NCBI GenBank assembly: GCA_964350765.1
Contig: CAYGMB010000002.1
Span: forward strand, 22,774-86,773
Direction of reading: 5' to 3'
Origin: an uncultured Flavobacteriaceae bacterium
Lineage (GTDB): Bacteria; Bacteroidota; Bacteroidia; Flavobacteriales; Flavobacteriaceae
DNA: 64,000 nucleotides
Position numbers and translations under genes: made by a program. Position 1 is the first letter of the stretch; the number at the start of each line of letters is the position of its first letter. Below, one piece after another: positions 1-10,452 of the stretch. The notes beneath the pieces are model-generated. The model did not search any database. It was not told the DNA's origin and saw only the letters and a program-made list of their open reading frames with translations.

Positions 1-194
1 TCGGTTTTAATCTTCTCTTTCACACCTTCTGCGGTTTCATACCCATCTTCAATGGGAGCATGAAATCTGTTTAGTGTGTCTAATGCTACTGCGATAGTAG
101 CAGAGTCCTTTAAGGAAAAAGCTCCTTTTCTTTGTGCTATTTCCAATGCTTGATTGATTGTGTTTAATGCTTGTTGTGCTTCTGAATTTCTCAT
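1..194 (-). CDS. hypothetical protein, N-terminal part only (gene runs off the left edge)
   Basis: Minus-strand frame is open from position 1 to an ATG at 192-194 (MRNSEAQQALNTINQALEIAQRKGAFSLKD...). It is missing from the ORF track only because no stop lies inside the window. Confidence 0.4.
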   Translation of the reverse strand, partial: MRNSEAQQALNTINQALEIAQRKGAFSLKDSATIAVALDTLNRFHAPIEDGYETAEGVKEKIKT

Positions 195-240
195 TTTGTT
201 GTTTTTATTTGTACTTAGTTTTTTCGAGGTGTCGTTGTGA

Positions 241-1803
241 TTAGTTATTATCTTCTTTTAGTGTTATTATAATTGCAGTGTTTAATAATAATTTTGCCAC
301 TGACATTGCGTTTTCCAATGCGGTTCTGATTGATTTAGTACTATCAATGATATTATCTTCTATGAGGTTTGCCCTTTGGTCTGTAAAGGCATTATAACCC
401 CTCCCATAAATCTTTTGAGGGCCTCTGAGATATTTTCTATAATCTCTGTTAGCATTTGTACAAACTTGTTTAAAAGGGGCCTCTAATGCGCTTAAAACAA
501 TATTATAGCCAAATTGTGTTTCCTCTGAGCCGATTTTTTTACCTCTCATAAGTTCTGCTATATAGACTAATGCAGAACCACCTCCCGATATCCATCCCTC
601 CTCTTGAGCAGACTCCACTGACCTCACTGAATCATCCACCCTATCAAATTTTTCTTTGATTTCAGATTCTGATATACCGCCAACCAATATAGTGGCAGAG
701 ACACCTTCGAGGTTTTGGATTCTTCTTTTTATAAAATCCTTATCGGTCACTTCTTCTAATTGACCTCTAAGTTCTTCTACTTTAGCTTTAGACTCTTCTG
801 TAGGTGTATTTTTAATGAAACTACAAGAGTTCTCTGTTACAATAACTTTATCGGCTACTCCTGCAACTATTTTTTTATCTTCACCTCCTTGTAAGAACAC
901 CTCTCCTCCTGTAAAGACAGCAACATCTTCTAATAATGCCTTCCTCTTAACATCATATTCGGGACACTGTACTAAAGTGATATTAAGTATGCCTCTTTGA
1001 TGGAGGTCGGTTATTTTTATAACCGTGTCTTCGTGGAACCTCTCTGCAATAATTACAATAGGTCTATTAGGAGAATCATTTCTCACTTGTTGTAAGAAGT
1101 TCTGAACAACTTCATCTCCACCTAAATAACCTTCATATATTACCACTACTGCATCATCACCTTCGAATTTTGCATTTTTTTGATTGTTGATTAGAAAAGG
1201 ATTTTCCCAACCATTTGATAATCGCATTCCCTTGGATATATCTAAATCTGAAAAAGAACTATTATGATTTTCTTGTACATCTATAATACCACCCTTACCA
1301 ACAGCTTTATAAGCTCTAAAAACTAAATCTCCTATTTCAGAATTATTATTAGACGATACTGTGGCAATTTTTTTAATGGCATCGTCATCTACTTCTCTTG
1401 AGAGCATTTTCATATAAGAACAAAAGTCGTCATAAGCCATTTCCATTCCTTGCTCCACCCTCTTGTTGTAAAAGTAAGCTGATTTAAGGCCAAACCATTT
1501 TTTCTTTTTACTATTTTCAACAAGAGCTTTTGCAAAAACTAAAGATGTTGTAGTGGCATCTCCTGCAGTGACTAAAGTTTTAGCCGCAATTTGTTTTGCC
1601 AAATTGGCACCTATGTTTTTTTCAGGATGGTCGAAGAATATTTTTTTGGCTGTTGATATCCCGTCTTTTGTTACCTTCGGATTCCCAAGTATTTCATTCT
1701 CCATGATTGCCAATTTACCTTGGGCACCCATTGTTTGACTAACCGCCTCACATACTGTGAAAAATCCTTCTAATAATTTTTTATTGTCATTAATCGATAT
1801 CAT
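241..1803 (-). CDS. groEL: group I chaperonin, GroEL/Cpn60 family (phage-encoded)
   Basis: 520 aa. Cpn60 signatures read by eye: PKVTKDGISTAKKI, the AGDATTTS nucleotide-binding loop (GroEL AGDGTTTA) and SGGGSALVY (GroEL GGGVAL). There is no C-terminal GGM repeat. Confidence 0.9.
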   Translation of the reverse strand: MISINDNKKLLEGFFTVCEAVSQTMGAQGKLAIMENEILGNPKVTKDGISTAKKIFFDHPEKNIGANLAKQIAAKTLVTAGDATTTSLVFAKALVENSKKKKWFGLKSAYFYNKRVEQGMEMAYDDFCSYMKMLSREVDDDAIKKIATVSSNNNSEIGDLVFRAYKAVGKGGIIDVQENHNSSFSDLDISKGMRLSNGWENPFLINNQKNAKFEGDDAVVVIYEGYLGGDEVVQNFLQQVRNDSPNRPIVIIAERFHEDTVIKITDLHQRGILNITLVQCPEYDVKRKALLEDVAVFTGGEVFLQGGEDKKIVAGVADKVIVTENSCSFIKNTPTEESKAKVEELRGQLEEVTDKDFIKRRIQNLEGVSATILVGGISESEIKEKFDRVDDSVRSVESAQEEGWISGGGSALVYIAELMRGKKIGSEETQFGYNIVLSALEAPFKQVCTNANRDYRKYLRGPQKIYGRGYNAFTDQRANLIEDNIIDSTKSIRTALENAMSVAKLLLNTAIIITLKEDNN

Positions 1804-1972
1804 CTATGTCGTCTAAATCTATATTTGTTAAGCTTAATAATTCTTCTAATTCTGTTTGTTCTTTTATGAATCTTTTTTTATCTTTTTCCCACTCACCTTT
1901 CATCAGTGGAAAAACCTCTTGTAGTTCTCCCGACTCAAGCATAGATTCATATAGTTTTTTAAATCTGCTCAT
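1790..1972 (-). CDS. hypothetical protein (60 aa, acidic C-terminus DLDDIDDID)
   Basis: ORF track. Its 3' end overlaps the chaperonin start by 14 nt on the same strand. Confidence 0.5.
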   Translation of the reverse strand: MSRFKKLYESMLESGELQEVFPLMKGEWEKDKKRFIKEQTELEELLSLTNIDLDDIDDID

Positions 1973-2198
1973 TGTAATGTTGTTTTACGAGATTATTGAA
2001 TTCTTGATATCGTTCGGGAGTCATATCAAAAGGTGTGCCTGTAAGTTGAAAACGTTGTTCTTTACCATCTTTGATACTTCTCACAAAGTATCCTTTTGAA
2101 TTTGTCACATAACACATATTTGAGGCACCAACGGATTTTCTAATTTTCTCTAACCAACTTGTGTGAAATTTTGGTATATTAGCTAAGTTTAACCCCAT
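1959..2198 (-). CDS. hypothetical protein (79 aa)
   Basis: ORF track. It overlaps both neighbours on the same strand (operon-like packing). Confidence 0.5.
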   Translation of the reverse strand: MGLNLANIPKFHTSWLEKIRKSVGASNMCYVTNSKGYFVRSIKDGKEQRFQLTGTPFDMTPERYQEFNNLVKQHYNEQI

Positions 2199-2607
2199 CG
2201 TCTTCTACTTTTTTCATTGTACCTATTTTCTTTGCCTTCCCACTTCTGATATTTTCCAAGTGCTTTTGTTGCAATAGCATTAATAAATCTAACGCCATAA
2301 CACCCAACATACTTTTTGTCTCTTGTGGTTTTTGTGAAAAATATGAATTGGCCGTTGGGTACATCTCCCATTCCACTTCAACAGATTCCACTACATCTTT
2401 CTTTTTGTTTACTTTTTGTTTTGTTGGATATGCTGAAATAAAGCCTTGATTTGTTTCATTTTGCTCTACTTGACGGAGGATTTGTATAAGTCCTTCCATA
2501 AGTCGGCCAGGGACTTCCACCGTATCACCATCATCATAAATATATTCAAGAAGGTTGATTTCTTCGTCTTTTAACTCTTCAATTGGTTTTTCTTGTGTTT
2601 CGCTCAT
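2179..2607 (-). CDS. hypothetical acidic protein (142 aa)
   Basis: ORF track; overlapping junctions with same-strand neighbours. Confidence 0.55.
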   Translation of the reverse strand: MSETQEKPIEELKDEEINLLEYIYDDGDTVEVPGRLMEGLIQILRQVEQNETNQGFISAYPTKQKVNKKKDVVESVEVEWEMYPTANSYFSQKPQETKSMLGVMALDLLMLLQQKHLENIRSGKAKKIGTMKKVEDDGVKLS

Positions 2608-2927
2608 TATAGTTTATTTTCTGCGTTTAAAAATTCTGTTAAATCTCCTTGTAATTGTTTGTACTCATCGTACTCATTTGATAACTTGGCATTTTCCTTT
2701 GCAGCGTTCATTATCATATCTGCTCTTGATTCTTCTCCAAATACTTTTTCACACCTCAAATCGTAATTTAACGTGTAACTACCATTCGAATCTCCTTCAT
2801 ATATTATTTGAGTTGTAGCTGTTTTTTGTTTTTTAGGTATATTTTGAAAAATTGCATTAGAACTTCTCTCAAATTTAATAGACAGCTCTAAATACCGTCT
2901 AAATTTTTTTAATAGTTTTTTGTTCAT
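2607..2927 (-). CDS. hypothetical protein (106 aa)
   Basis: ORF track. ATG at 2925-2927; shares 1 nt (2607) with the start codon of the downstream ORF. Confidence 0.55.
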   Translation of the reverse strand: MNKKLLKKFRRYLELSIKFERSSNAIFQNIPKKQKTATTQIIYEGDSNGSYTLNYDLRCEKVFGEESRADMIMNAAKENAKLSNEYDEYKQLQGDLTEFLNAENKL

Positions 2928-2944
2928 TTTATTTTGTGTTAAAT

Positions 2945-3052
2945 AATCCTGTGTGTTAGAGGGCGAAAATCACCTTGACGAATTTTCACACTCTACAAAA
3001 GCCAATTCTTACTTGTAACCTCTGCAGTGGTGTCAGCTAACGCCACAGGATT
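2945..3052 (-). other. GC-enriched multi-helix RNA structure between the SSB-like gene and the next cistron
   Basis: Closing helix AATCCTGTG (2945-2953) / CACAGGATT (3044-3052), extended by GTTAG (2955-2959) / CTAAC (3037-3041). Inner hairpin GAAAAT (2965-2970) / ATTTTC (2982-2987), flanked by AGAG (2958-2961) / CTCT (2991-2994). No ORF and no T-run. Confidence 0.4.
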
Positions 3053-3084
3053 TATTAATTGTTAAGTTGTTGATAATCAATTAT

Positions 3085-3810
3085 TTAGAAGGGCAAATCA
3101 TCGTAGTCATCTTCATTCAAATCACTAACAGGTTCGAATGCTTCTTGTGGTGTAACTGTAGGCACCTTATTACTTGGTTTAGGAGATGATTTAGGTTTTG
3201 CTGTTGTAGCGGTTCCTGATAATCTCGCCACTTCTTTTTGTAGAGTTTCATAAAGAAAAACTAATTTGGTTTCTTTAGATACTGCAGTGGGTCTATTTTT
3301 TCCTGCCACTTCTTTCCACTCTAATTTTGGAATATCTCCTTTAGGATTATTGTCCGTCACATAAGAAAGTGCATATCCAACCTTCTCACCGTCTTTTTTA
3401 ATTGTAACACCTGAGTTTGTGTATTTTACAACCTCATTATTAATAACATCACCTTTGTTTAGTCTCCAATTGTTGATATTAATGTTATCCCCTTTTTGGA
3501 TGTTCGGTAATTGTCTGATAATTGCTTCTACAAAATCATCTACTTCATCTCCGTTGTTGTTTAATACAGGAAAATCTACCATATAAGTTTCTCCTACATT
3601 ATCTAATTCAAAACGAAGTTCTTCTCTGTTGTTAAGATATTCGTTTTTACGAAGAGAAATATTTTTTAATACTCCTTCTACACCTGTGTTATAATATTTT
3701 CTGTAGCTTACTTTGTCTTTTGAATTTGTGTGTTTCACATATCCTTCTTTCTCATCTGAAGAATATTGAAATAATTGGCCATCAAAATAGCTCTGAATGT
3801 AATTTGTCAT
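3085..3810 (-). CDS. putative single-stranded DNA-binding protein (non-canonical; acidic C-terminal tail ending DDLPF)
   Basis: 241 aa. A Pro/Ser/Thr/Lys-rich linker is followed by DLNEDDYDDLPF, resembling the bacterial SSB tip DDDIPF and the acidic Phe-terminated tail of T7 gp2.5-type proteins. It sits in the recombination/replication arm with RecA. No OB-fold motif was verified. Confidence 0.5.
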   Translation of the reverse strand: MTNYIQSYFDGQLFQYSSDEKEGYVKHTNSKDKVSYRKYYNTGVEGVLKNISLRKNEYLNNREELRFELDNVGETYMVDFPVLNNNGDEVDDFVEAIIRQLPNIQKGDNININNWRLNKGDVINNEVVKYTNSGVTIKKDGEKVGYALSYVTDNNPKGDIPKLEWKEVAGKNRPTAVSKETKLVFLYETLQKEVARLSGTATTAKPKSSPKPSNKVPTVTPQEAFEPVSDLNEDDYDDLPF

Positions 3811-3826
3811 CTGTAATTGTTTTTTG

Positions 3827-4234
3827 TTATTTAAATAATTGTTTTAATTTTTGCCAAAATGTTAATTTTGTTAGTTCTTCTATTTGTAAGTAAACATCTA
3901 TCTCATCATCTATAGCTTTTATTGTATCTCCATTTTTTAGGACTACCTCACAGCCTTCATCAAAATCTCCTGCAATATAAGAAACTTCATCTAAAGGTAT
4001 AAAAGCACTTACTATTTTAAAATCAAAAAATTCATCTGTAATTGGTAGAATATTTGTAGCTGATTTTTGCTTCAAATCATCAGGAATAGGTAAATTCATA
4101 TCCTCGTACCAACTTGCAGATTTTCCATTTTCATCTACAGGCTCTTCTACGGAGTCTTCAAACATATCTCTTATCTTACCTTCATGTTCTTCTTTTAACT
4201 GAGCTCTTCTAATACTTACTTCTAATAGTTTCAT
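3827..4234 (-). CDS. hypothetical, strongly acidic protein (135 aa)
   Basis: ORF track frame, started at the ATG 4232-4234 (MKLLEVSIRR...). The TTG at 4253-4255 used by the track lies inside a -7 promoter box. Confidence 0.6.
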   Translation of the reverse strand: MKLLEVSIRRAQLKEEHEGKIRDMFEDSVEEPVDENGKSASWYEDMNLPIPDDLKQKSATNILPITDEFFDFKIVSAFIPLDEVSYIAGDFDEGCEVVLKNGDTIKAIDDEIDVYLQIEELTKLTFWQKLKQLFK

Positions 4235-4252
4235 ATATTTATTTTGATAAAA

Positions 4253-4284
4253 CAAAGATAAGATTGTTGTTTCTACCTACCAAG
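4253..4284 (-). promoter_or_regulatory. Bacteroidetes-type promoter (imperfect -33)
   Basis: Minus strand: -7 box TATCTTTG (4253-4260), 20-nt spacer, -33 CTTG (4281-4284) instead of TTTG. The box ends 18 nt upstream of the ATG at 4234. Confidence 0.4.
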
Positions 4285-4617
4285 TTTTTAACAATACTTT
4301 AACATCGATTATGTATTGAAGGTCGGTTTTACTTTTTTATCCTTTTTAATCAAGGTGTTTTTGATATTACCTGAACTTACCTATCAGTCATTTTCAAGAT
4401 TGTCAGGTTATATTTTAGCTAAAGAGGGTTTTAATATTCCAACATTACCTACCTTAAGTCAAATAACATTGACTCTCTAAAACCTTCTCACGTAAATAAG
4501 ATAAGTCTAACATACAACGGTGAAAGATTTCATCCAATTACAGGTTACTTAAATAGGTTTTTAGTAGATGATATTCATTTAGCTATCGAAGCTGATTTTG
4601 AAAAACATAAATCCTTT

Positions 4618-4833
4618 ATGATTGAAACAGTACGTTCTTTTTTTAAAGATTACGATTCAAGTAATAAGTCAAACGAATCTTTTAGTCAACTTGAAATGCA
4701 CACAACTGCCTTTTTAAAATACTATGGTTTTAATAGTAACATAGTTTATCCACTATATTTAGGCAATTCAGAATTTAAAGTTTATTTAGAGGACTTGGAT
4801 AAATCTATTAAAAAAGGATTAGCCGAGTCTTGA
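4618..4833 (+). CDS. hypothetical protein (71 aa from first ATG; the frame stays open upstream to 4435)
   Basis: ORF track. The same frame has no stop back to 4435 and no ATG, GTG or TTG in that stretch. See the finding on a split ORF. Confidence 0.5.
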   Translation: MIETVRSFFKDYDSSNKSNESFSQLEMHTTAFLKYYGFNSNIVYPLYLGNSEFKVYLEDLDKSIKKGLAES

Positions 4834-5019
4834 TTTTTCTTCTTCGGTTAGTTCTATTGTATTTATAAATACATTCATATTATCAGCGTAAACTATTCCT
4901 TTTTCAGGATGATTTACATAAACTAATCTACCTTCTGCGAGGGTATAAAAATCTCTTTGATTAGGATTTAGTTTTACTAAATTCTCAAATTTAATTTCTT
5001 CTTTTTCTTCTGTGTTCAT
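4819..5019 (-). CDS. hypothetical protein (66 aa)
   Basis: ORF track. ATG at 5017-5019 directly abuts repeat element E1. It converges on and overlaps 4618-4833 by 15 nt. Confidence 0.55.
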   Translation of the reverse strand: MNTEEKEEIKFENLVKLNPNQRDFYTLAEGRLVYVNHPEKGIVYADNMNVFINTIELTEEEKSRLG

Positions 5020-5210
5020 ACGCTTTGTTTAGCTTACGTACAACGAGTTTGTATATGAAAAGTAGCGTGTAAAAATTCGTTAATTTTCGAGTTTACGTTG
5101 TGTTTTTTAGTGCGCCAAAATTTTAGGCTTGGCACTTACCTAATTATTTTTTATATACAGTGTTGGCAAATCGGTTTTTAATTCCGTAATTTACTAAATC
5201 TGTTTACTAT
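5020..5210. repeat. intergenic repeat element E1 (paralogue of E2/E3)
   Basis: Shares ordered blocks with E2: GTACAACGAGTTTGTATATGAAAAGTA (5038-5064), ATTCGTTAATTTTCGAGTTTA, hairpin GTGCgCCAA/TTGGCAC (5110-5135) plus a T-rich run, TATATACAGTGTTGGCAAA (5152-5170), and GGTTTTTAATTCCGTAATTTACTAAAT. Confidence 0.65.
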
Positions 5211-5471
5211 TTAATAGAAATCTTTAAAATGTTCTTTAAGTGCTCTAACTCTGTTTAAAGTCTCATCTACTTCCACATTTATTTCCTTTTCTATTTGTTC
5301 AATAGGTTTTCCTTCTAATACTGCAAGTAATTCTTTTTCTATTTTTTCAACAGATTCTCCTTTTTCCAATCTCTGACGTAATAAATTACATTTCTTGGCT
5401 TTATTTAAGTCAACTCTTTTTCTGTTAATTACCCAATTTCCTATAAAAGGGATTGATATTCCTGTCAACAT
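5211..5471 (-). CDS. hypothetical protein (86 aa)
   Basis: ORF track. ATG at 5469-5471 lies 15 nt from the TTTGCCAAC block of E2. Confidence 0.55.
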   Translation of the reverse strand: MLTGISIPFIGNWVINRKRVDLNKAKKCNLLRQRLEKGESVEKIEKELLAVLEGKPIEQIEKEINVEVDETLNRVRALKEHFKDFY

Positions 5472-5705
5472 AGTTTCTTTTAACTGTTTGCCAACGGTTT
5501 AGTATATGAAAAGTAAAGGGGTTTCATTCTTTATTTTTCGGTTTTAAACTGTTGTTTGTTGATTAGTACTTACTTTTGGCGAAGTACTTTAGCCTTTATT
5601 TTTTATATACGTTGTTGTAAAACGTTTTTATTTTTCCGTAACGGTTGTTAGTCCAACGTAATTTAGTAAATTGGTCGGAAATATTAATAATTTAAAATTT
5701 TAACT
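5472..5705. repeat. intergenic repeat element E2
   Basis: TTTGCCAACGGTTTAGTATATGAAAAGTA (5487-5515), hairpin AGTACTT/AAGTACT (5565-5588) followed by TTAGCCTTTATTTTTT, then TATATACGTTGTTGTAAAA (5604-5622) and GTTTTTATTTTTCCGTAA...GTAATTTAGTAAAT. Colinear with E1. Confidence 0.65.
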
Positions 5706-5891
5706 ATGTCTGATTACTATTACGATAATAAAAAAGCTCATTTTAAAGCTAACTTCGGAAAAGCTGCTGACGATAACTTGTCAGAATTTTTAAAATATGT
5801 ATCTATCGAAATAAACAGAGAAATGTTGGATTCTTTGTCCGATTTAAAGGGGTCTATTGAAAGTCTAACAGAATCAAACTATAAAGAGTAG
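5706..5891 (+). CDS. hypothetical protein (61 aa)
   Basis: ORF track. One of two rightward genes embedded in the leftward arm, downstream of E2. Confidence 0.5.
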   Translation: MSDYYYDNKKAHFKANFGKAADDNLSEFLKYVSIEINREMLDSLSDLKGSIESLTESNYKE

Positions 5892-5892
5892 A

Positions 5893-6063
5893 TTATTTTA
5901 TTCCACTTATTTCCAATTCAAATTCCTCTGTATTATTTAATGTAGAGGCTTTCTTGATATTATACAAGCTTTGTTTAAGAATGTAGTCCGCATCTGCTGT
6001 ATTAAGGTTTTTTAACAGTCCTAAAACTTCTTTTATTTTTGATGTTAATTCAGTTGTGTTCAT
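5893..6063 (-). CDS. hypothetical protein (56 aa from ATG 6061-6063)
   Basis: ORF track frame. I prefer the ATG at 6061-6063 (MNTTELTSK...), which sits 14 nt from TTTGCCAAC exactly as in E2. The GTG at 6130-6132 used by the track would make the gene cover conserved E3 blocks. Confidence 0.5.
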   Translation of the reverse strand: MNTTELTSKIKEVLGLLKNLNTADADYILKQSLYNIKKASTLNNTEEFELEISGIK

Positions 6064-6234
6064 TGTATTTTTAAATGTTTGCCAACAAAGGTATATGGTG
6101 TCGTTTGAGGAACGAAAATGCACTATATACACTGTTGCGTTTTTATTAACTTACTTTAGGTGAAGTATTTAACCTTTTATTTCTTACTCAAAGCTATAAC
6201 TTATATTTCGCATAATCAAATGTTTAACATTATT
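6064..6234. repeat. intergenic repeat element E3 (rearranged copy)
   Basis: TTTGCCAACAAAGGTATATGG (6078-6098), TATATACACTGTTGCG (6124-6139), and AACTTACTTTAGGTGAAGTATTTAACCTTTT (6148-6178), which resembles the E2 hairpin block. Block order differs from E1 and E2. Confidence 0.55.
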
Positions 6235-6696
6235 TTATCTTTTAAAAGTAGGTTTTCCAATTATTCTAACACTCACTCCATCATTAAAACAATTTTCATC
6301 AAATAGCGCATTGTTGCAAATTATCTCTTTTGATTCTTTATATTTTAATTCTGTTTCGTTATAAGCATAATCTAAAATCTCTTTTCTCATATTGAGATTT
6401 TGAATACCTTCTTTTTTTATTAATTCATTGAGTGTTTTATTAGAGCCTGTGTAGGATTGCCACGGCATTTCCCGCACATCCCAACGCCATTTCTTAAGAC
6501 GTTTATTTTTCATTTGGGCTATTTCTTTTTTGCCAAATTTCTTTTTACGTTTAGAGAACAATTTTTTCTTTCCATAATAAACTTTAGTTTGACCTTCATA
6601 TTCTATAGTTATTCTGTACACAAAACCATATACATTTTTTGGCATTTGGTCTACTGATGTTATAGTTCTAATACCATACTTCCAATTTATCTCCAT
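6235..6696 (-). CDS. GIY-YIG family (Seg-like) endonuclease candidate, catalytic domain only
   Basis: 153 aa. VYGFVYRITIEYEGQTKVYYGKKK matches the GIY...YIG spacing. It is followed by YTGSNKTLNELIKKEGIQNLNMRKEILDYAYNETELKYKESKEII, the Y-GS-x-L-x-I-x-G-x-F-x-EIL-x-EL-x-E pattern of free-standing phage GIY-YIG nucleases. Confidence 0.55.
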   Translation of the reverse strand: MEINWKYGIRTITSVDQMPKNVYGFVYRITIEYEGQTKVYYGKKKLFSKRKKKFGKKEIAQMKNKRLKKWRWDVREMPWQSYTGSNKTLNELIKKEGIQNLNMRKEILDYAYNETELKYKESKEIICNNALFDENCFNDGVSVRIIGKPTFKR

Positions 6697-6698
6697 AA

Positions 6699-6896
6699 CT
6701 ATCTCTCTAAATATTCTTGTAGTAAATCATCGTGGCACCAAAAAAACAAATAACCATCTTCTTCAACTGTATCATCTTCAGTATATATAAGACAAACTAA
6801 ATCTGTATGTATCTTACCTAAATACTTTCCTATTTCGTTTATGACAATCCAATAGTCTTTAGATTGTTCTTCAAATCTAACTAACCTCTTTTTCAC
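6699..6896 (-). CDS. hypothetical protein (65 aa)
   Basis: ORF track. It overlaps the recA 3' end by 20 nt on the same strand. Confidence 0.5.
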   Translation of the reverse strand: MKKRLVRFEEQSKDYWIVINEIGKYLGKIHTDLVCLIYTEDDTVEEDGYLFFWCHDDLLQEYLER

Positions 6897-7854
6897 TTAA
6901 TTTGCTTTTAATCTCCTCAAACAGTTCAGGATTATCCATTAATATCTCTTTCACGGAGCCTATACCTTGTCCTAACTTAGTATCGGCATAGGAAAACCAA
7001 GAACCACTTTTATTAACTATACCTGCTTCTACAGCCAAATCTATAAGTTCAAGTTCTTTATCTATACCTTGTCCATAAATAATAGATGTCTCTACTACAG
7101 AGTCTTTAATACCATAATTGGCTTTTATAAGTTTAAACTTATGTTTTGACGATATACCTTCTTCACCTTTTAGTGGTGTACACTTAATCCTTGTCCTTGC
7201 ATAATAAGCCCAAGCCTTACCTCCTGTTGTGACATTAGGGTCTCCATAACCACCTATTTGACTTCTTAATTGATTTATAACAAAAAAAGTAGTTCTATTT
7301 TTTGATAGATGTGGCATAATCTTCCTAAGACCTTTAGAGTTCATTCTTGCTGCCAAGGCCATATTAGCGTCTCCAACCGAACCCTCGTCTTCTTTTTCAG
7401 GTAATAACAAAGCTACTGAATCTAATACTACAAGACCTCCTTTTACGTTTCTGCAGAACTCAATTATTATATCCCAAGCTTGTTCTCCCGTATCGGGTTT
7501 TACTAATATAAAATTATCGGTTATATTTAAACCTATAGCTTCATTATATTCAGGGTCATAGACATCTTCTAAATCCACCCATAAAATTGGTTCGTTAGGG
7601 TATGTTTTTTGAAACTCTGTTGCTCCGTGTAAACAGCTTGTTGTTTTTCCTCCACCAGGGTCTCCTGAAAACTCAACAACCTTCCCTTTAGGATAACCGC
7701 CTTTTAATGCAATATCCATTTTAGGGGAACCTGTTGGAAATTTCTCTATTACCCTTTCAGCTAAATCTTTTACTATAATTCCACTGTTTTTTCCAAACAT
7801 TTTGTGAATAGTATCCTTAAATGATTGTAATTCGGTTGTATTTTCTTTTGCCAT
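6877..7854 (-). CDS. recA: RecA-family recombinase
   Basis: 325 aa. Walker A GGYPKGKVVEFSGDPGGGKTTSCLH, Walker B LVVLDSVALL, FFVINQLRSQIGGYGDPNVTTGGKAWAYYARTRI (RecA L2/FINQ region), and a RecA-like C-terminal domain ELIDLAVEAGIVNKSGSWFSY...LGQG. Confidence 0.92.
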   Translation of the reverse strand: MAKENTTELQSFKDTIHKMFGKNSGIIVKDLAERVIEKFPTGSPKMDIALKGGYPKGKVVEFSGDPGGGKTTSCLHGATEFQKTYPNEPILWVDLEDVYDPEYNEAIGLNITDNFILVKPDTGEQAWDIIIEFCRNVKGGLVVLDSVALLLPEKEDEGSVGDANMALAARMNSKGLRKIMPHLSKNRTTFFVINQLRSQIGGYGDPNVTTGGKAWAYYARTRIKCTPLKGEEGISSKHKFKLIKANYGIKDSVVETSIIYGQGIDKELELIDLAVEAGIVNKSGSWFSYADTKLGQGIGSVKEILMDNPELFEEIKSKLSEKEVS

Positions 7855-8223
7855 TTATAATCTTTTTAATCTGAATAATTGTAGTCCTAAAAATTTTGGG
7901 AGTCTGATTTCTCTTCTTTCCTCTTTTTCTTTTTTATACTCTTCGTACATTTTATTAATTTGCATATTTTTCTCTTTCATAAACTCGTATGTTTTTTCAT
8001 ACGACTCTTTTAATTCTTGAATAACATCTTGTTCATTTTCAGTAATTATCTTTGGAAAATTTCTTATACCAAAAAAGTTATTAATTGTATCTGCTTGTAA
8101 TTTATCAATAACTACTATTTTTTTATTTGTTTTATGTATACTCTCTATAAAATCTTCTAATTTTTTAATTTTATTTAAAAGTTCGTCATATTCATTATCG
8201 AATAGGGTTACTGTCTTTTTCAT
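7855..8223 (-). CDS. hypothetical protein (122 aa, Lys/Glu-rich)
   Basis: ORF track. The stop abuts the recA start, and there is a 4-nt ATGA-type overlap with the upstream ORF. Confidence 0.6.
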   Translation of the reverse strand: MKKTVTLFDNEYDELLNKIKKLEDFIESIHKTNKKIVVIDKLQADTINNFFGIRNFPKIITENEQDVIQELKESYEKTYEFMKEKNMQINKMYEEYKKEKEERREIRLPKFLGLQLFRLKRL

Positions 8224-8405
8224 ATTAATTTTTTTCGTTTTAAATATTTTATAAAATGTTCTGTTTCTTCTTTATCTTCTATTCCTCCCGCACAAAGTGT
8301 TGGTATTCCTTCTATTAATTTATAATGTTTGTAGTTTACAAACCAATTTTGAGAACCATCACGGAATTGTTTAACTATTATTTTGTTTTCTTTTCTGATA
8401 AGCAA
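8220..8405 (-). CDS. hypothetical protein (61 aa, TTG start)
   Basis: ORF track. It is translationally coupled (ATGA overlap) to 7855-8223. The only available start is a TTG that coincides with a -7-like box, so the start is uncertain. Confidence 0.45.
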   Translation of the reverse strand: MLIRKENKIIVKQFRDGSQNWFVNYKHYKLIEGIPTLCAGGIEDKEETEHFIKYLKRKKLI

Positions 8406-8470
8406 ATATAATTAAAAGCTAACTACCATAAAAATATTTAACAATGTTTTAACTTTTTAAGGTATTTATA

Positions 8471-8672
8471 AAGGAACCCCTATACCCATGCATATATTTA
8501 ATTAAAGCAAACCAAAATTTTTAGTTAATACTTAATATAATATATAATGAATATAATAGAGAATACTCTCTATGTTAGCTCTTGTTTATCCTTCCCATGA
8601 TAAGGTGTTAATTATCCAAAAACCTAAATAAGGCTTATACATGCATGTGGGGACGTGAGTTGACGGTTCCTT
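8471..8672. other. long-range inverted repeat enclosing a very AT-rich 150-bp core (candidate origin or structured leader)
   Basis: AAGGAACC (8471-8478) pairs perfectly with GGTTCCTT (8665-8672). CCCATGCAT (8485-8493) pairs with ATGCATGtGG (8641-8650). The core holds AATATAAT twice (8534-8541, 8550-8557) plus TATATAAT (8541-8548). Confidence 0.35.
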
Positions 8673-8837
8673 GGCGAATATCTCTAGGTACAATTTTTAT
8701 TGTACATAGGTGTATAATATTGGCAATCATTGCTCACTTTCATTAACTTCAAGAACTGTATTTAAGAACATGATTACCTAATCAATACTTCGGTTCAAGT
8801 CTTAATGTTGTTTGAGTAGGTCAAACCAAATAAACAC

Positions 8838-8885
8838 CAAATAAAAACGGATAAACCTCGTCTCGAAAGACGACCATTTATCCGT
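8838..8885 (-). terminator. strong intrinsic terminator (minus strand)
   Basis: Minus-strand ACGGATAAA-TGG-TCGTC-TTTCGA-GACGA-GG-TTTATCCGT (8847-8885; 9 bp plus 5 bp stem), followed by TTTTTATTTGG. Confidence 0.7.
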
Positions 8886-8966
8886 AAATTTATTTATATT
8901 TCATATACAAAAAAACTCCTTTTAAAAAAATTAAGTGCGGGGACAATTAATAAATCTTAAGGAGTT

Positions 8967-8998
8967 TTTGTATATTTATAGATTTACTAATATATTTG
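8967..8998 (+). promoter_or_regulatory. Bacteroidetes-type promoter, rightward
   Basis: TTTG (8967-8970), 20-nt spacer, TATATTTG (8991-8998). Confidence 0.55.
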
Positions 8999-9012
8999 TC
9001 CCACACAAGATG

Positions 9013-9044
9013 CAAACATATAACATCTTTTTGGAATTACCAAA
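9013..9044 (-). promoter_or_regulatory. Bacteroidetes-type promoter, leftward
   Basis: Minus strand: TTTG (9041-9044), 20-nt spacer, TATGTTTG (9013-9020). Confidence 0.6.
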
Positions 9045-9136
9045 TATATTAAGAAAATTTTAATACTTTATTTTTTAGAATCACAAATTTGGATATCTAA
9101 AAATCATTTTGTAAGTTAGTGTTTTGTTTAACATTA

Positions 9137-9180
9137 AAACCCTCAATCATCGGTGTTCAAAGGTTGGGGGTTTCTTTTAT
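9137..9180 (+). terminator. possible terminator or attenuator hairpin
   Basis: AAACCCTCAA (9137-9146) / TTGGGGGTTT (9164-9173): 10 bp with one A-G mismatch and a 17-nt loop, followed by CTTTTAT. Confidence 0.3.
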
Positions 9181-9199
9181 CAAATAGGCTTTTATACTT

Positions 9200-9230
9200 T
9201 TTGTAGTTTAAAGGTCTTTACGTATATTTG
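9200..9230 (+). promoter_or_regulatory. Bacteroidetes-type promoter
   Basis: TTTG (9200-9203), 19-nt spacer, TATATTTG (9223-9230), 28 nt upstream of the ATG at 9259. Confidence 0.6.
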
Positions 9231-9258
9231 CTTGATTAATCTTAAAAACAACATTATA

Positions 9259-9468
9259 ATGTTAAAATCAATTTTTGAAAAAGCAAGAGATTGGTGGACT
9301 AAAGCAGGATTTGAAAGCGTCGGTTTCTTAGGAGGCTTTTTATTATTAAAAGCTTTTGGGTACTCCACATTTGCAACAGCAGCACTTACTATATTCATAT
9401 ATGTAAATGCAAAGGTAATTTGGTCTTGGATTGTAAAAGGAGCAAAAGCTCTTTGGACAAAAGATTAA
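9259..9468 (+). CDS. small membrane protein (69 aa, two hydrophobic helices)
   Basis: ORF track frame, started at ATG 9259 (MLKSIFEKARDWW...). The TTG at 9124 would place the promoter 9200-9230 inside the gene. Hydrophobic stretches: VGFLGGFLLLKAF and FATAALTIFIYV. It has its own promoter and terminator. Confidence 0.65.
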   Translation: MLKSIFEKARDWWTKAGFESVGFLGGFLLLKAFGYSTFATAALTIFIYVNAKVIWSWIVKGAKALWTKD

Positions 9469-9492
9469 CTATTACCACCTAACAAAACATTG

Positions 9493-9514
9493 AGCCCCTA
9501 CATAGGGGCTTTTT
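9493..9514. terminator. bidirectional terminator hairpin between convergent genes
   Basis: AGCCCC-TACATA-GGGGCT (9493-9510) followed by TTTT. It lies between the stop of 9259-9468 (+) and the stop of 9513-9776 (-). Confidence 0.65.
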
Positions 9515-9776
9515 AGTTTAAATCCAAAACATCTTCAGGCAACTCCTGAGAAGGCTTAAACTTAATATTACAATCAAAGAAGAGTTCTAAATACTTAGCT
9601 TGTTTTCTTATTGAAATCTCTTCAGAGCTAAAGTAATACTCCTCGAACATCTTAAAAATAAGATTATCCCAAAAATCTTGATTTTCTTTTATATACCGTC
9701 TATTTATTACTACCTTACTTAAATTATCTAATAGAACTTCTTCATATTCTATTTGACCTAACTTTTGTTCTTGCAT
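9513..9776 (-). CDS. hypothetical protein (87 aa from ATG 9774-9776)
   Basis: ORF track frame. The TTG at 9792-9794 used by the track is part of the -7 box, so I start at the in-frame ATG (MQEQKLGQIEYEE...). Confidence 0.6.
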   Translation of the reverse strand: MQEQKLGQIEYEEVLLDNLSKVVINRRYIKENQDFWDNLIFKMFEEYYFSSEEISIRKQAKYLELFFDCNIKFKPSQELPEDVLDLN

Positions 9777-9791
9777 CTTTTTTGGTTTTTG

Positions 9792-9823
9792 CAAATATAT
9801 ATTTTAATATACATATCTGCAAA
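9792..9823 (-). promoter_or_regulatory. Bacteroidetes-type promoter, leftward
   Basis: Minus strand: TTTG (9820-9823), 20-nt spacer, TATATTTG (9792-9799), 15 nt upstream of the ATG at 9776. Confidence 0.65.
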
Positions 9824-9868
9824 TATATAAATGTTATTTTAATGTACAAGTTAATTATATGTTAAATT

Positions 9869-9900
9869 TTTGGTAAATTCAAATATTTAACATATTTTTG
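9869..9900 (+). promoter_or_regulatory. Bacteroidetes-type promoter, rightward
   Basis: TTTG (9869-9872), 20-nt spacer, TATTTTTG (9893-9900), 13 nt upstream of the ATG at 9914. Confidence 0.65.
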
Positions 9901-9913
9901 TTTGAAAATAAAT

Positions 9914-10207
9914 ATGAGACAAAGGTTTTACAGATTTTTTGTTGTGAACATTGTCAATTTTTTATACTTAGAAGGTCATGAAGTGTTACATGATAATAGT
10001 TATGGCATTACAATGGATTGTAATGTAGAGCAAATTGTAATACCAAGATTTAATATAGGTTTTGTACAAGTGTATTTTGTAAGGGATAATAGAATAGTTG
10101 ATAGATTTATGACCACAACAAAGTACAGAAAAAATGCAGAAAAAAAGTTCAAAAAGTTTTACAAAAAAAGAATGATGGCTACGTTAGCCGAAGTAGATAA
10201 TTTATGA
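9914..10207 (+). CDS. hypothetical protein (97 aa)
   Basis: ORF track frame, started at ATG 9914 (MRQRFYRFF...). The TTG at 9902 lies immediately after the -7 box. Confidence 0.55.
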   Translation: MRQRFYRFFVVNIVNFLYLEGHEVLHDNSYGITMDCNVEQIVIPRFNIGFVQVYFVRDNRIVDRFMTTTKYRKNAEKKFKKFYKKRMMATLAEVDNL

Positions 10208-10452
10208 AGCAACCAAAAGTATTTAGGAAAGATATTATAGTTACAATGCCACCTCAGATAAAATTATCAGATGAAGATACATCTGCAGAGGTAGAGGCTA
10301 TAGTGGCATTTAAAGGAGCAGACGTAGAAGATTTTGAAATAGGAGATAAGGTGCTTATCAATAAAAACAAAGCTACCGAAATAAAATATTTTGACAAAGA
10401 ATATTGGAAAACCTATGAAAGTTATATTATCTGCGGTATAGAAGAAAAATAG
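10204..10452 (+). CDS. possible GroES/Cpn10-like co-chaperonin (82 aa)
   Basis: By-eye pattern match to Cpn10: FRKDIIV (GroES LHDRVIV), AEVEAIVAFKG (GEVLAVGNG), FEIGDKVLINKN (VKVGDIVIFNDG), YESYIICGIEE (ESDILAIVEA). The mobile-loop region looks shortened. Not verified by any profile. Confidence 0.35.
   Translation: MKQPKVFRKDIIVTMPPQIKLSDEDTSAEVEAIVAFKGADVEDFEIGDKVLINKNKATEIKYFDKEYWKTYESYIICGIEEK

Follow-up and report, generated by a model that had tools for sequence, protein, structure and literature searches.

A candidate two-hairpin 5′ leader RNA of Bacteroidota-type phages, apparently orphaned from the gene that follows it in related genomes

What is produced from a promoter when the DNA between it and a nearby terminator contains no credible open reading frame (ORF)? 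The question is raised by a 64,000-nucleotide (nt) segment from an uncultured Flavobacteriaceae bacterium (GenBank assembly GCA_964350765.1, contig CAYGMB010000002.1, positions 22,774 to 86,773), here called the window, whose minus strand carries such a unit at positions 9044 to 8836. An earlier note on this DNA had proposed either a stand-alone phage small RNA (sRNA) or a leader of the recombination genes found downstream. The evidence tips, by a modest measure, toward a lineage-specific cis-acting 5′ leader of the leftward early (replication/recombination) operon of ~130-kb Bacteroidota-type phages, made of two threaded hairpins and orphaned in the window. Of the two earlier proposals the leader is the better supported, because the same architecture directly precedes a start codon in eight related leaders. 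Its fold matches no known RNA family and represents an undescribed family of structured leaders. We infer that the element gates the first gene of the leftward operon, either as a two-state switch or as a pseudoknot.

The leftward promoter (9044-9013, minus strand) has the organization described previously, with a −33 TTTG (9044-9041), a 20-nt spacer and the −7 box TATGTTTG (9020-9013). Judged by sequence, it corresponds fully to the Bacteroidota sigma-A type pattern (−33 TTTG and −7 TAnnTTTG, 19-21 nt apart). Transcription is predicted to start at ~9009-9005. The pattern TTTG-N19-21-TAnnTTTG occurs 15 times in the window and 2.7 ± 1.6 times in shuffled sequences, and most of its matches sit in intergenic gaps, oriented toward the next gene. 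The promoter at 9044-9013 is kept in all relatives (see below). The unit is closed on the minus strand by a putative strong terminator (8885-8836) composed of a stem (8885-8847; 10 + 6 bp with a UUCG loop, noted before as 9 + 5 bp) and the tail UUUUAUUUGG. The stem has a stability of −19.4 kcal/mol (z = −4.2) and the features expected from an intrinsic terminator; a crude scan of the whole window, both strands included, gave no stronger terminator-like hairpin, which sustains its earlier description as the best one of the minus strand. No credible ORF lies between promoter and terminator, in agreement with the earlier reading. The four-codon mini-ORF ATG AAA TAT AAA TAA (8904-8890, minus strand), found at the position where a gene for a 294-317 amino acid (aa) protein starts in relatives, is not conserved in the related contig L006. 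Its ATG had been taken for the only one of the unit; there is another at 8877-8875, from which an ORF of 18 codons extends through the terminator. No conserved leader ORF or leader peptide was found.

The predicted transcript can form two helices with interleaved strands. In helix A the extreme 5′ end of the RNA (GUGUGGGACAA, 9006-8996, minus strand) pairs with UUGUCCCCGCAC (8946-8935) over 10-11 bp, including one G·U pair and one bulged C. In helix B, AUAUACAAAAACUCCUU (8975-8959) pairs with AAGGAGUUUUUUUGUAU (8921-8905), a strand that includes a U7 run (8915-8909). The two helices had been described as 11 bp long each; both are present and the length is about right for A, while B extends to 16-17 bp. 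The strand order A5′-B5′-A3′-B3′ defines a crossing (pseudoknot-type) topology, as had been recognized. The best crossing pair has an energy of −24.6 kcal/mol against −5.3 ± 3.5 kcal/mol in 200 dinucleotide shuffles, none of which reaches the observed value (0/200), and the leader region ranks 1st of 3,364 natural 114-nt segments taken from both strands of the 64-kb sequence. Because these 170 nt give a good fold on the plus strand too (z = −6.0), the strand cannot be told from the fold z-score by itself. The sense-strand helices are more stable than their antisense counterparts in 9 of the 11 leaders compared below, and 25 of 259 pairs are G·U, which favours an RNA encoded by the minus strand of the window. 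At gathering thresholds Rfam (15) had no match to the complete window or to any of 8 related loci; at E ≤ 5 (window 8200-9950; L014 1-800) nothing but noise appeared, which agrees with the earlier statement that the RNA resembles no described family.

Relatives were collected with RecA homologues from a large protein collection, which form a graded series from 99% to 58% identity to the window protein and whose contigs are designated L001-L018 (the L001 RecA is 99% identical). More relatives, including L020, L021 and L022, were fetched through the family of a winged-helix protein encoded next to the leader. The comparison comprises 11 leaders from about 9 lineages. In blastn comparisons all close relatives keep the ~250 bp upstream of the leader, promoter included. 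The match to L001, L002, L004 and L005 breaks off at 9011-9007, where transcription is predicted to start, and is picked up again only at ~8454-8384, just upstream of a 61-aa gene. L006-L009 share positions 9261-8891 with the window at 89% identity; this block contains the promoter and both helices and excludes the terminator. The terminator 8885-8847 is specific to the window and absent from L006 and L014, and its earlier proposal as the regulated element is not supported. The order A5′-B5′-A3′-B3′-U-run is found downstream of the promoter in all 11 leaders, with unrelated helix sequences. Helix A is formed by UCGCUAAACUA and UAGUUUAGCGA and helix B by ACCCCCCU and AGGGGGU in L001; the corresponding strands are GUCGGAAACCAA/UUGGUUUCCGAC and ACAAACUCC/GGAGUUUUUUGU in L002, GUGAGGAC/GUCCUCAC and GAAAACCUUC/GAAGGUUUUU in L014, and UUGGCAAACGGU/GCUGUUUGCCAA and AUAAACCCUCGU/ACGGGGGUUUGU in L020. 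In L022 helices A and B have 17 and 19 bp, respectively. The best crossing pair beats 200/200 shuffles in 8 of the 11 leaders and is reached by 1/200 in L005 and by 3/200 in L004.

The AU-rich loops can be aligned among L002, L004, L005, L006 and the window, and helix A is wholly different in each of them. This pattern is one of compensatory replacement among homologous leaders. Seven leaders aligned with MAFFT have 14 invariant columns, 13 of which are A or T. The alignment is not in structural register, and per-locus shuffle tests were therefore used instead of a multi-lineage covariation statistic. L006 is the relative closest to the window among those that share the module, and the two were aligned without reference to structure: 98.6% of 74 pair cells are paired and 1 is broken, two pairs (both in helix A′, an extension of helix A described below) are changed on both sides, and four one-sided changes are compatible with pairing. 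Both helix A substitutions in L006 keep the pairing. Sequence identity in the leader, counted from the alignment, is ~86-88%, against 89% for the whole shared block.

Where the winged-helix gene is present, the module stays with its start codon. The slot that follows the leader was called as a gene of 289-311 aa in L001, L002, L004, L005 and L011, and in the eight gene-bearing leaders taken together it encodes a winged-helix protein of 294-317 aa (the L001 gene is called as 289 aa). In L011 an HNH gene is inserted between promoter and module; the module is then located ~500 nt from the promoter and stays at the gene start. In the ORF-less lineages it stays adjacent to the promoter. These are the window, L006-L009 and L014, where no ORF is found in the slot under any stop-codon reassignment. 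The gene is missing from two other lineages (L006-L009 and L014) besides the window. In the window the slot is occupied by an ORF-less stretch, the cargo (8835-8455, minus strand). The three ORF-less cargos (window, L006, L014) are unrelated to each other and to the winged-helix gene. Three interpretations of the cargo were tried and set aside. It is not a pseudogene, tblastn of four relatives' proteins against the window and L006 having found nothing; it is not a recoded gene, all three stop codons being present in all six frames (window, L006, L014); and a large structured RNA is not supported, with fold z-scores of −1.5 to −3.1 that are alike on both strands (−3.1 and −2.8 for the window cargo) and no Rfam match. 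In the window the regulated gene would then have been replaced by unrelated ORF-less DNA that opens with a strong terminator, so that the promoter is predicted to yield only an orphan RNA of ~100-170 nt. Each of the three independent ORF-less lineages (window, L006, L014) keeps an intact module. These intact modules and the compensatory changes between window and L006 argue against pure decay, although they do not reveal a function.

The winged-helix protein family has 36 members in the collection, none of them annotated, and no sequence match in Pfam, PHROG, NCBIfam or PDB. AlphaFold2, supplied with 30 sequences, gave a confident model, with a predicted local distance difference test (pLDDT) value of 88.5. 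Structural matches of this model in PDB are to winged-helix domains only (E about 0.05-0.3). In the viral library BFVD the best matches are uncharacterized proteins (E as low as 7e-9); the matches that bear the annotation replication protein O, replication initiator or replisome organiser are weak. The modelled structure weakly suggests a replication-organiser-like DNA-binding protein.

How could the leader control such a gene? The segment from B5′ to B3′, folded alone, gives a long hairpin that combines helix B with an inner helix C and holds A3′ in its apical loop. Helix C pairs loop L2 (8957-8946, minus strand) with loop L3 (8934-8922), which carries the 3′ strand of C (UUAAU and others). 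Across the leaders this hairpin has a stability of −13 to −28 kcal/mol, and it ends 0-19 nt before the winged-helix start codon in all eight gene-bearing leaders. A run of at least 5 U comes right after the G/C core of B3′ in 9 of the 11 leaders. By inspection, 0/30 window genes have a U-run just before their ATG, which makes the one of the leader distinctive. The conserved terminator-like element is helix B/C with its U-run, not the hairpin 8885-8847. The segment from A5′ to A3′ folded alone gives an alternative hairpin, in which A is lengthened by helix A′ (8991-8980, in loop L1, paired with 8957-8946) and B5′ lies in the apical loop. L2 is therefore a shared strand that pairs with either L1 (helix A′) or L3 (helix C). 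The two hairpins of the window, at −21.2 kcal/mol for the 5′ one and −19.0 kcal/mol (z = −5.4) for the 3′ one, are near-isoenergetic, both with z below −5.3, and a rough estimate for the A + B pseudoknot is −24.8 kcal/mol, slightly better than either nested state. Loop lengths permit A and B to coexist (L2, 9-12 nt in 10/11 leaders; L3, 7-20 nt; L1, 17-53 nt). The order and helix stability of an H-type pseudoknot are found in 11/11 leaders; in most of these, nested hairpins involving L2 equal or exceed the pseudoknot in stability. L2 pairs with L1 or L3 in the window, L006, L001, L002, L020 and L022. L004 and L021 show little or no such overlap, and B5′ is not sequestered in any leader.

The host in which such an RNA would act is probably a member of the Bacteroidota, as suggested by the promoter type and by A-rich leaders lacking a Shine-Dalgarno (SD) sequence: an SD-like core is found in 0/30 window genes, whose leaders are A-rich. 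The Bacteroidia ribosome is blind to the SD sequence and mRNA structure tunes initiation (PMC7797042, PMC6847099). Bacteroidia ribosomes without bS21 can read SD sequences (PMC9976891). We note that in most lineages the 3′ strand of helix B is SD-like (AAGGAG, GGAG, GAGG, AGGGGG) and the 5′ strand anti-SD-like (CUCCUU), as found at 8921-8905/8975-8959 in the window and in the equivalents of L002, L004, L005, L001 and L014. This may reflect only the need for G-C pairs, or a link to the ribosomes without bS21 (PMC9976891).

In the mechanism that we propose, the 3′ hairpin (B, C and the U-run) would mask the region where translation starts, terminate transcription in the manner of an attenuator, or do both. 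Occlusion of the initiation region would matter where initiation in the host depends on unstructured leaders. The 5′ hairpin (A and A′) would compete with the upper part of the 3′ hairpin because A3′ and L2 can pair with A5′ and L1 at the transcript's 5′ end; the 5′ hairpin, or A by itself, might also lock onto the B/C hairpin instead of competing with it. Alternatively, L2 would be left unpaired and A and B would coexist as an H-type pseudoknot. As the earlier of the two to be transcribed, the 5′ hairpin should also be the earlier to fold, and it would delay or prevent closure of the 3′ hairpin, so that nascent transcripts would be permissive for expression of the downstream gene. Refolding, or a factor that titrates A5′/L1, would then shut expression off.

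Several points speak against a leader of this kind. The transcription start, the function of the terminator and every structure are predictions. The helices were chosen at each locus by optimization, a procedure for which the shuffles control, and the 'covariation' across lineages depends on helices matched with structure as the guide. The balance lies with the 3′ state in L005, L011, L014 and L021 and with the 5′ state in L022; with stabilities that differ so widely between lineages, a uniform bistable switch is not demonstrated. The antiterminator-like hairpin leaves B5′ unpaired, unlike in classical attenuators, and no conserved leader peptide, aptamer-like core or antisense partner was found that could trigger a switch. 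Finally, the regulated gene is absent from the window, where the element may be without present function.

The same two helices could instead form together, as a static H-type pseudoknot recognized by a protein or by the ribosome and acting as a translational operator. In variants of this idea the winged-helix protein or another phage protein would bind the knot in an autoregulatory loop, as at the T4 gene 32 operator, or the knot would be needed to activate initiation, as with the repZ/repA pseudoknot of IncIα and IncB plasmids. Helices A and B are indeed both present in 11/11 leaders, the lengths of L1, L2 and L3 are compatible with their coexistence, and the −24.8 kcal/mol estimated for the window is slightly better than the nested states. 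The downstream protein is putatively DNA-binding and replication-organiser-like, and the IncIα and IncB initiator genes are controlled by way of a leader pseudoknot (PMC8053102). Such an operator is nonetheless unlikely, if a serious competitor: no conserved sequence is available for recognition by a protein, the nested folds are much more stable than the estimated pseudoknot in several lineages, and the compensatory changes between window and L006 fall in A′ (L1:L2), a part of the 5′ hairpin and not of the A + B knot. Nor was a leader peptide or an overlapping antisense RNA found, in contrast to the plasmid systems. That the orphan unit is a stand-alone sRNA of ~165 nt, with targets in trans among the RNAs of phage or host, or with the role of a decoy for the factor that normally binds the leader, appears improbable in view of its distribution: the promoter-to-terminator unit is not conserved, L006 sharing the module and L014 having a different module, both without the terminator, and the other relatives carry an ORF instead. 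A site complementary to helix A was searched for elsewhere in the 64-kb window and none was found. The arguments that make this sRNA attractive are the complete consensus promoter combined with the strongest terminator of the window, the lack of a credible ORF, the compensatory changes between window and L006, which suggest continuing selection on the fold, and the existence of a separate promoter for the downstream genes (8434-8403).

At the opposite extreme, the leader could be a decaying relic without present function, left behind when the winged-helix gene was replaced in a locus rich in homing endonucleases. The locus is mosaic, with similarity breaking at the transcription start and at the former start codon, and the window-L006 identity in the leader (~86-88%) is no higher than in the flanking block (89%). 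Yet nearly all substitutions at paired positions between the two keep pairing, two double changes included, and the module is intact in three independent ORF-less lineages; we regard plain decay as decidedly improbable. A function at the DNA level is the least credible alternative and we give it very little weight. The feature would then belong to a replication origin, or its inverted repeats would be bound by the winged-helix protein, at the strand switch and GC-skew minimum. The cumulative GC-skew minimum and the switch to divergent transcription do coincide at ~9000-10000, the gene next to the leader in relatives weakly resembles replication organiser and initiator proteins, and the plus strand folds well too. 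The interleaved arms, however, are 40-90 nt apart, which is atypical of protein-binding sites; G·U pairs render the sense strand more stable in 9/11 leaders; the element is always on the transcribed strand, between promoter and start codon; no iterons or tandem repeats were found in a repeat search; and the helices persist without the protein gene.

Among known systems, the logic of the proposed leader appears closest to terminator/antiterminator attenuators and to the control of initiator translation by long-range pairing. Leaders of the trp, pyr and T-box type are terminator/antiterminator transcription attenuators. As in these, the leader is located between promoter and first gene, with a hairpin and a U-run just upstream of the ORF (eight gene-bearing leaders), and in the window, L006, L001, L002, L020 and L022 the upper stem of the terminator and an alternative hairpin upstream both draw on L2, so that the folds may compete. 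The differences are that no leader peptide, tRNA specifier, ligand core or protein site was found here, that the alternative hairpin leaves the lower 5′ strand of the terminator free, and that the U-run is partly paired with an upstream A-run. In addition, each hairpin carries a strand of the other in its apical loop, which makes a pseudoknot possible as well, unlike in attenuators. The riboswitch-like sensor proposed earlier is unlikely because no helix nucleotide is conserved between lineages, and a metabolite riboswitch is excluded, as there are no invariant core nucleotides across lineages and no Rfam riboswitch match.

Kinetic control offers a second parallel. In the leader of the phage MS2 maturation gene, folding is kinetically controlled through long-distance pairing, and hok mRNA is inhibited by fold-back; expression is low and transient. 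The candidate leader would resemble them in having an upstream complementary sequence that pairs with the initiation region or a neighbouring structure, only nascent or unrefolded transcripts being translated. It has no sequence or structural homology to either, and for the leader a role of kinetics is a proposal. The T4 gene 32 operator is a compact 5′ pseudoknot upstream of an unstructured AU-rich tract. Like it, the leader belongs to a phage, has a 5′-terminal pseudoknot-type fold with AU-rich loops and precedes a gene of ~300 aa in a replication/recombination module. Unlike in gene 32, the 3′ helix of the leader itself abuts the start codon, and the winged-helix protein does not match gp32. 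The putL and putR sites of phage HK022 are cis-acting RNAs for processive antitermination. They share with the window a two-helix RNA just past an early phage promoter and upstream of a strong terminator. A put-like antiterminator is a poor fit, since it is the start codon that the module accompanies, rather than the promoter or a terminator; moreover, in L002 and L004 a terminator-like hairpin is found upstream of the module, and in the window a separate promoter follows the terminator, features that differ from put.

The other parallel (PMC8053102, citing Asano & Mizobuchi 1998 and Praszkier & Pittard 2002) concerns repZ of ColIb-P9 (IncIα) and repA of pMU720 (IncB), in which a pseudoknot controls translation of the initiator. 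As described there, a hairpin loop pairs with a distant single strand, and in both cases this occurs near the initiation region of a gene for a (here putative) replication protein. In the plasmids the loop is upstream and its partner is beside the ribosome-binding site, whereas in the leader the loop is the start-proximal element. The plasmid systems also depend on translation of a leader peptide and on a countertranscript directed at the loop, neither of which was found for the leader; an antisense-strand promoter is present only in the window and in L006, and its transcript would not overlap the loop. The helices of the leader have 8-19 bp, against the few bp given for the plasmid pseudoknots, and its host is SD-blind.

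The antisense promoter just mentioned is a plus-strand full-consensus sequence, TTTG-N20-TATATTTG, located inside the leader (8967-8998). It is kept in L006 despite substitutions and absent from the other relatives. About 170 nt past it there is a terminator-like hairpin (9135-9172, plus strand; −13.7 kcal/mol) followed by UCUUUUAU; the two could delimit a second ORF-less unit, antisense to the leftward promoter. Between the conserved start and the two-helix module, L002 (~4030-4065) and L004 (~3805-3835) have an extra terminator-like hairpin with a U-run, after which a possible second −7 box is found directly upstream of A5′. On the minus strand, the ORF-less stretch is followed by the 61-aa gene and then the recA genes. 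The promoter 9044-9013 had been considered the only canonical one available to the recA operon, which is incorrect: the near-consensus promoter TTTT-N20-TATATTTG (8434-8403, minus strand) precedes the 61-aa gene and the recA genes, so that the latter are not reliant on 9044-9013 alone. A direct repeat GTTAAA-N5-GTTAAA (8453-8437, minus strand) is found directly upstream of this promoter. The repeat is found again at 4303-4287 (minus strand), and a ~70-nt block of repeat and promoter recurs between cistrons in relatives, which may define a class of regulated middle-type promoters.

The window has a G+C content of 31%. Its genes are on the minus strand from 1 to 8405 and on the plus strand from ~9900. 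To the left of the leader, all on the minus strand, are small-protein genes, RecA (6877-7854) and a SegE-like GIY-YIG endonuclease (6235-6696). GenBank phages show no DNA similarity to the region, and the best phage RecA match, from a Chryseobacterium phage, has 42.6% identity. A scan for transfer RNA and transfer-messenger RNA genes found nothing. The surroundings of the leader are a mosaic hot spot where GIY-YIG (SegE-like), HNH and RNase H genes come and go among relatives. Genes of these kinds are found in the window (6235-6696, minus strand), L005 (1391-1771), L011 (4222-4707) and L002 (5116-5577), a gene content consistent with cassette exchange via homing endonucleases. A Cpn60/GroEL homologue is encoded a few kb downstream of recA in ~130-kb relatives (L002, L004, L006, L011); by synteny, the 520-aa ORF at 241-1803 (minus strand) of the window is probably its counterpart. 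The ORF at 10204-10452 (plus strand) has weak GroES-like PHROG matches, and a bidirectional terminator, GAGCCCCUACAUAGGGGCUU, lies at 9492-9511 between the convergent small genes 9513-9794 (minus strand) and ~9238-9468 (plus strand).

IMG/VR yielded nothing when queried with RecA, the helix A pattern or the conserved pattern next to the promoter, and a scan of GTDB genomes revealed no relative. The sole match of a pattern scan of JGI metagenomes, L010, was judged a chance match on reading its sequence. The IMG/VR search with the winged-helix family retrieved one truncated locus, L019, showing only B, the U-run and the ATG, and the one with a RecA profile retrieved 80 loci, 0 of which encode the winged-helix protein. 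In L016, a more distant relative whose RecA is 58% identical, 770 nt without an ORF (1497-2270; also in L017 and L018) include visibly G+C-richer segments. This stretch comes after a consensus promoter at 1535, lies upstream of the Cpn60 gene and has no Rfam match.

Very little is known about the cis-regulatory RNAs of Bacteroidota and their phages. The leader is a candidate for the way in which such phages dose or time the synthesis of an early protein, with helices that are kept over about nine lineages while their sequences are replaced. It precedes a putative replication-organiser-like gene in the strand-switch region. Few known attenuators share its arrangement, in which the loop of each hairpin contains a strand of the other. 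A broader view, which we consider rather doubtful, is that the module represents a new class of cargo-independent RNA gates of Bacteroidota phages, self-timing or controlled by a factor at the head of the early operon, kept even when the cargo is non-coding, and that the unit in the window is functional. If this were true, the swapped cargo could serve, for example, as transcription-primed origin sequences or as non-coding RNAs. On the preferred reading, that of a leader separated from its gene, the copy in the window would be a regulatory leader that was orphaned by cassette replacement and became an sRNA-like transcript, a plausible route to new small RNAs.

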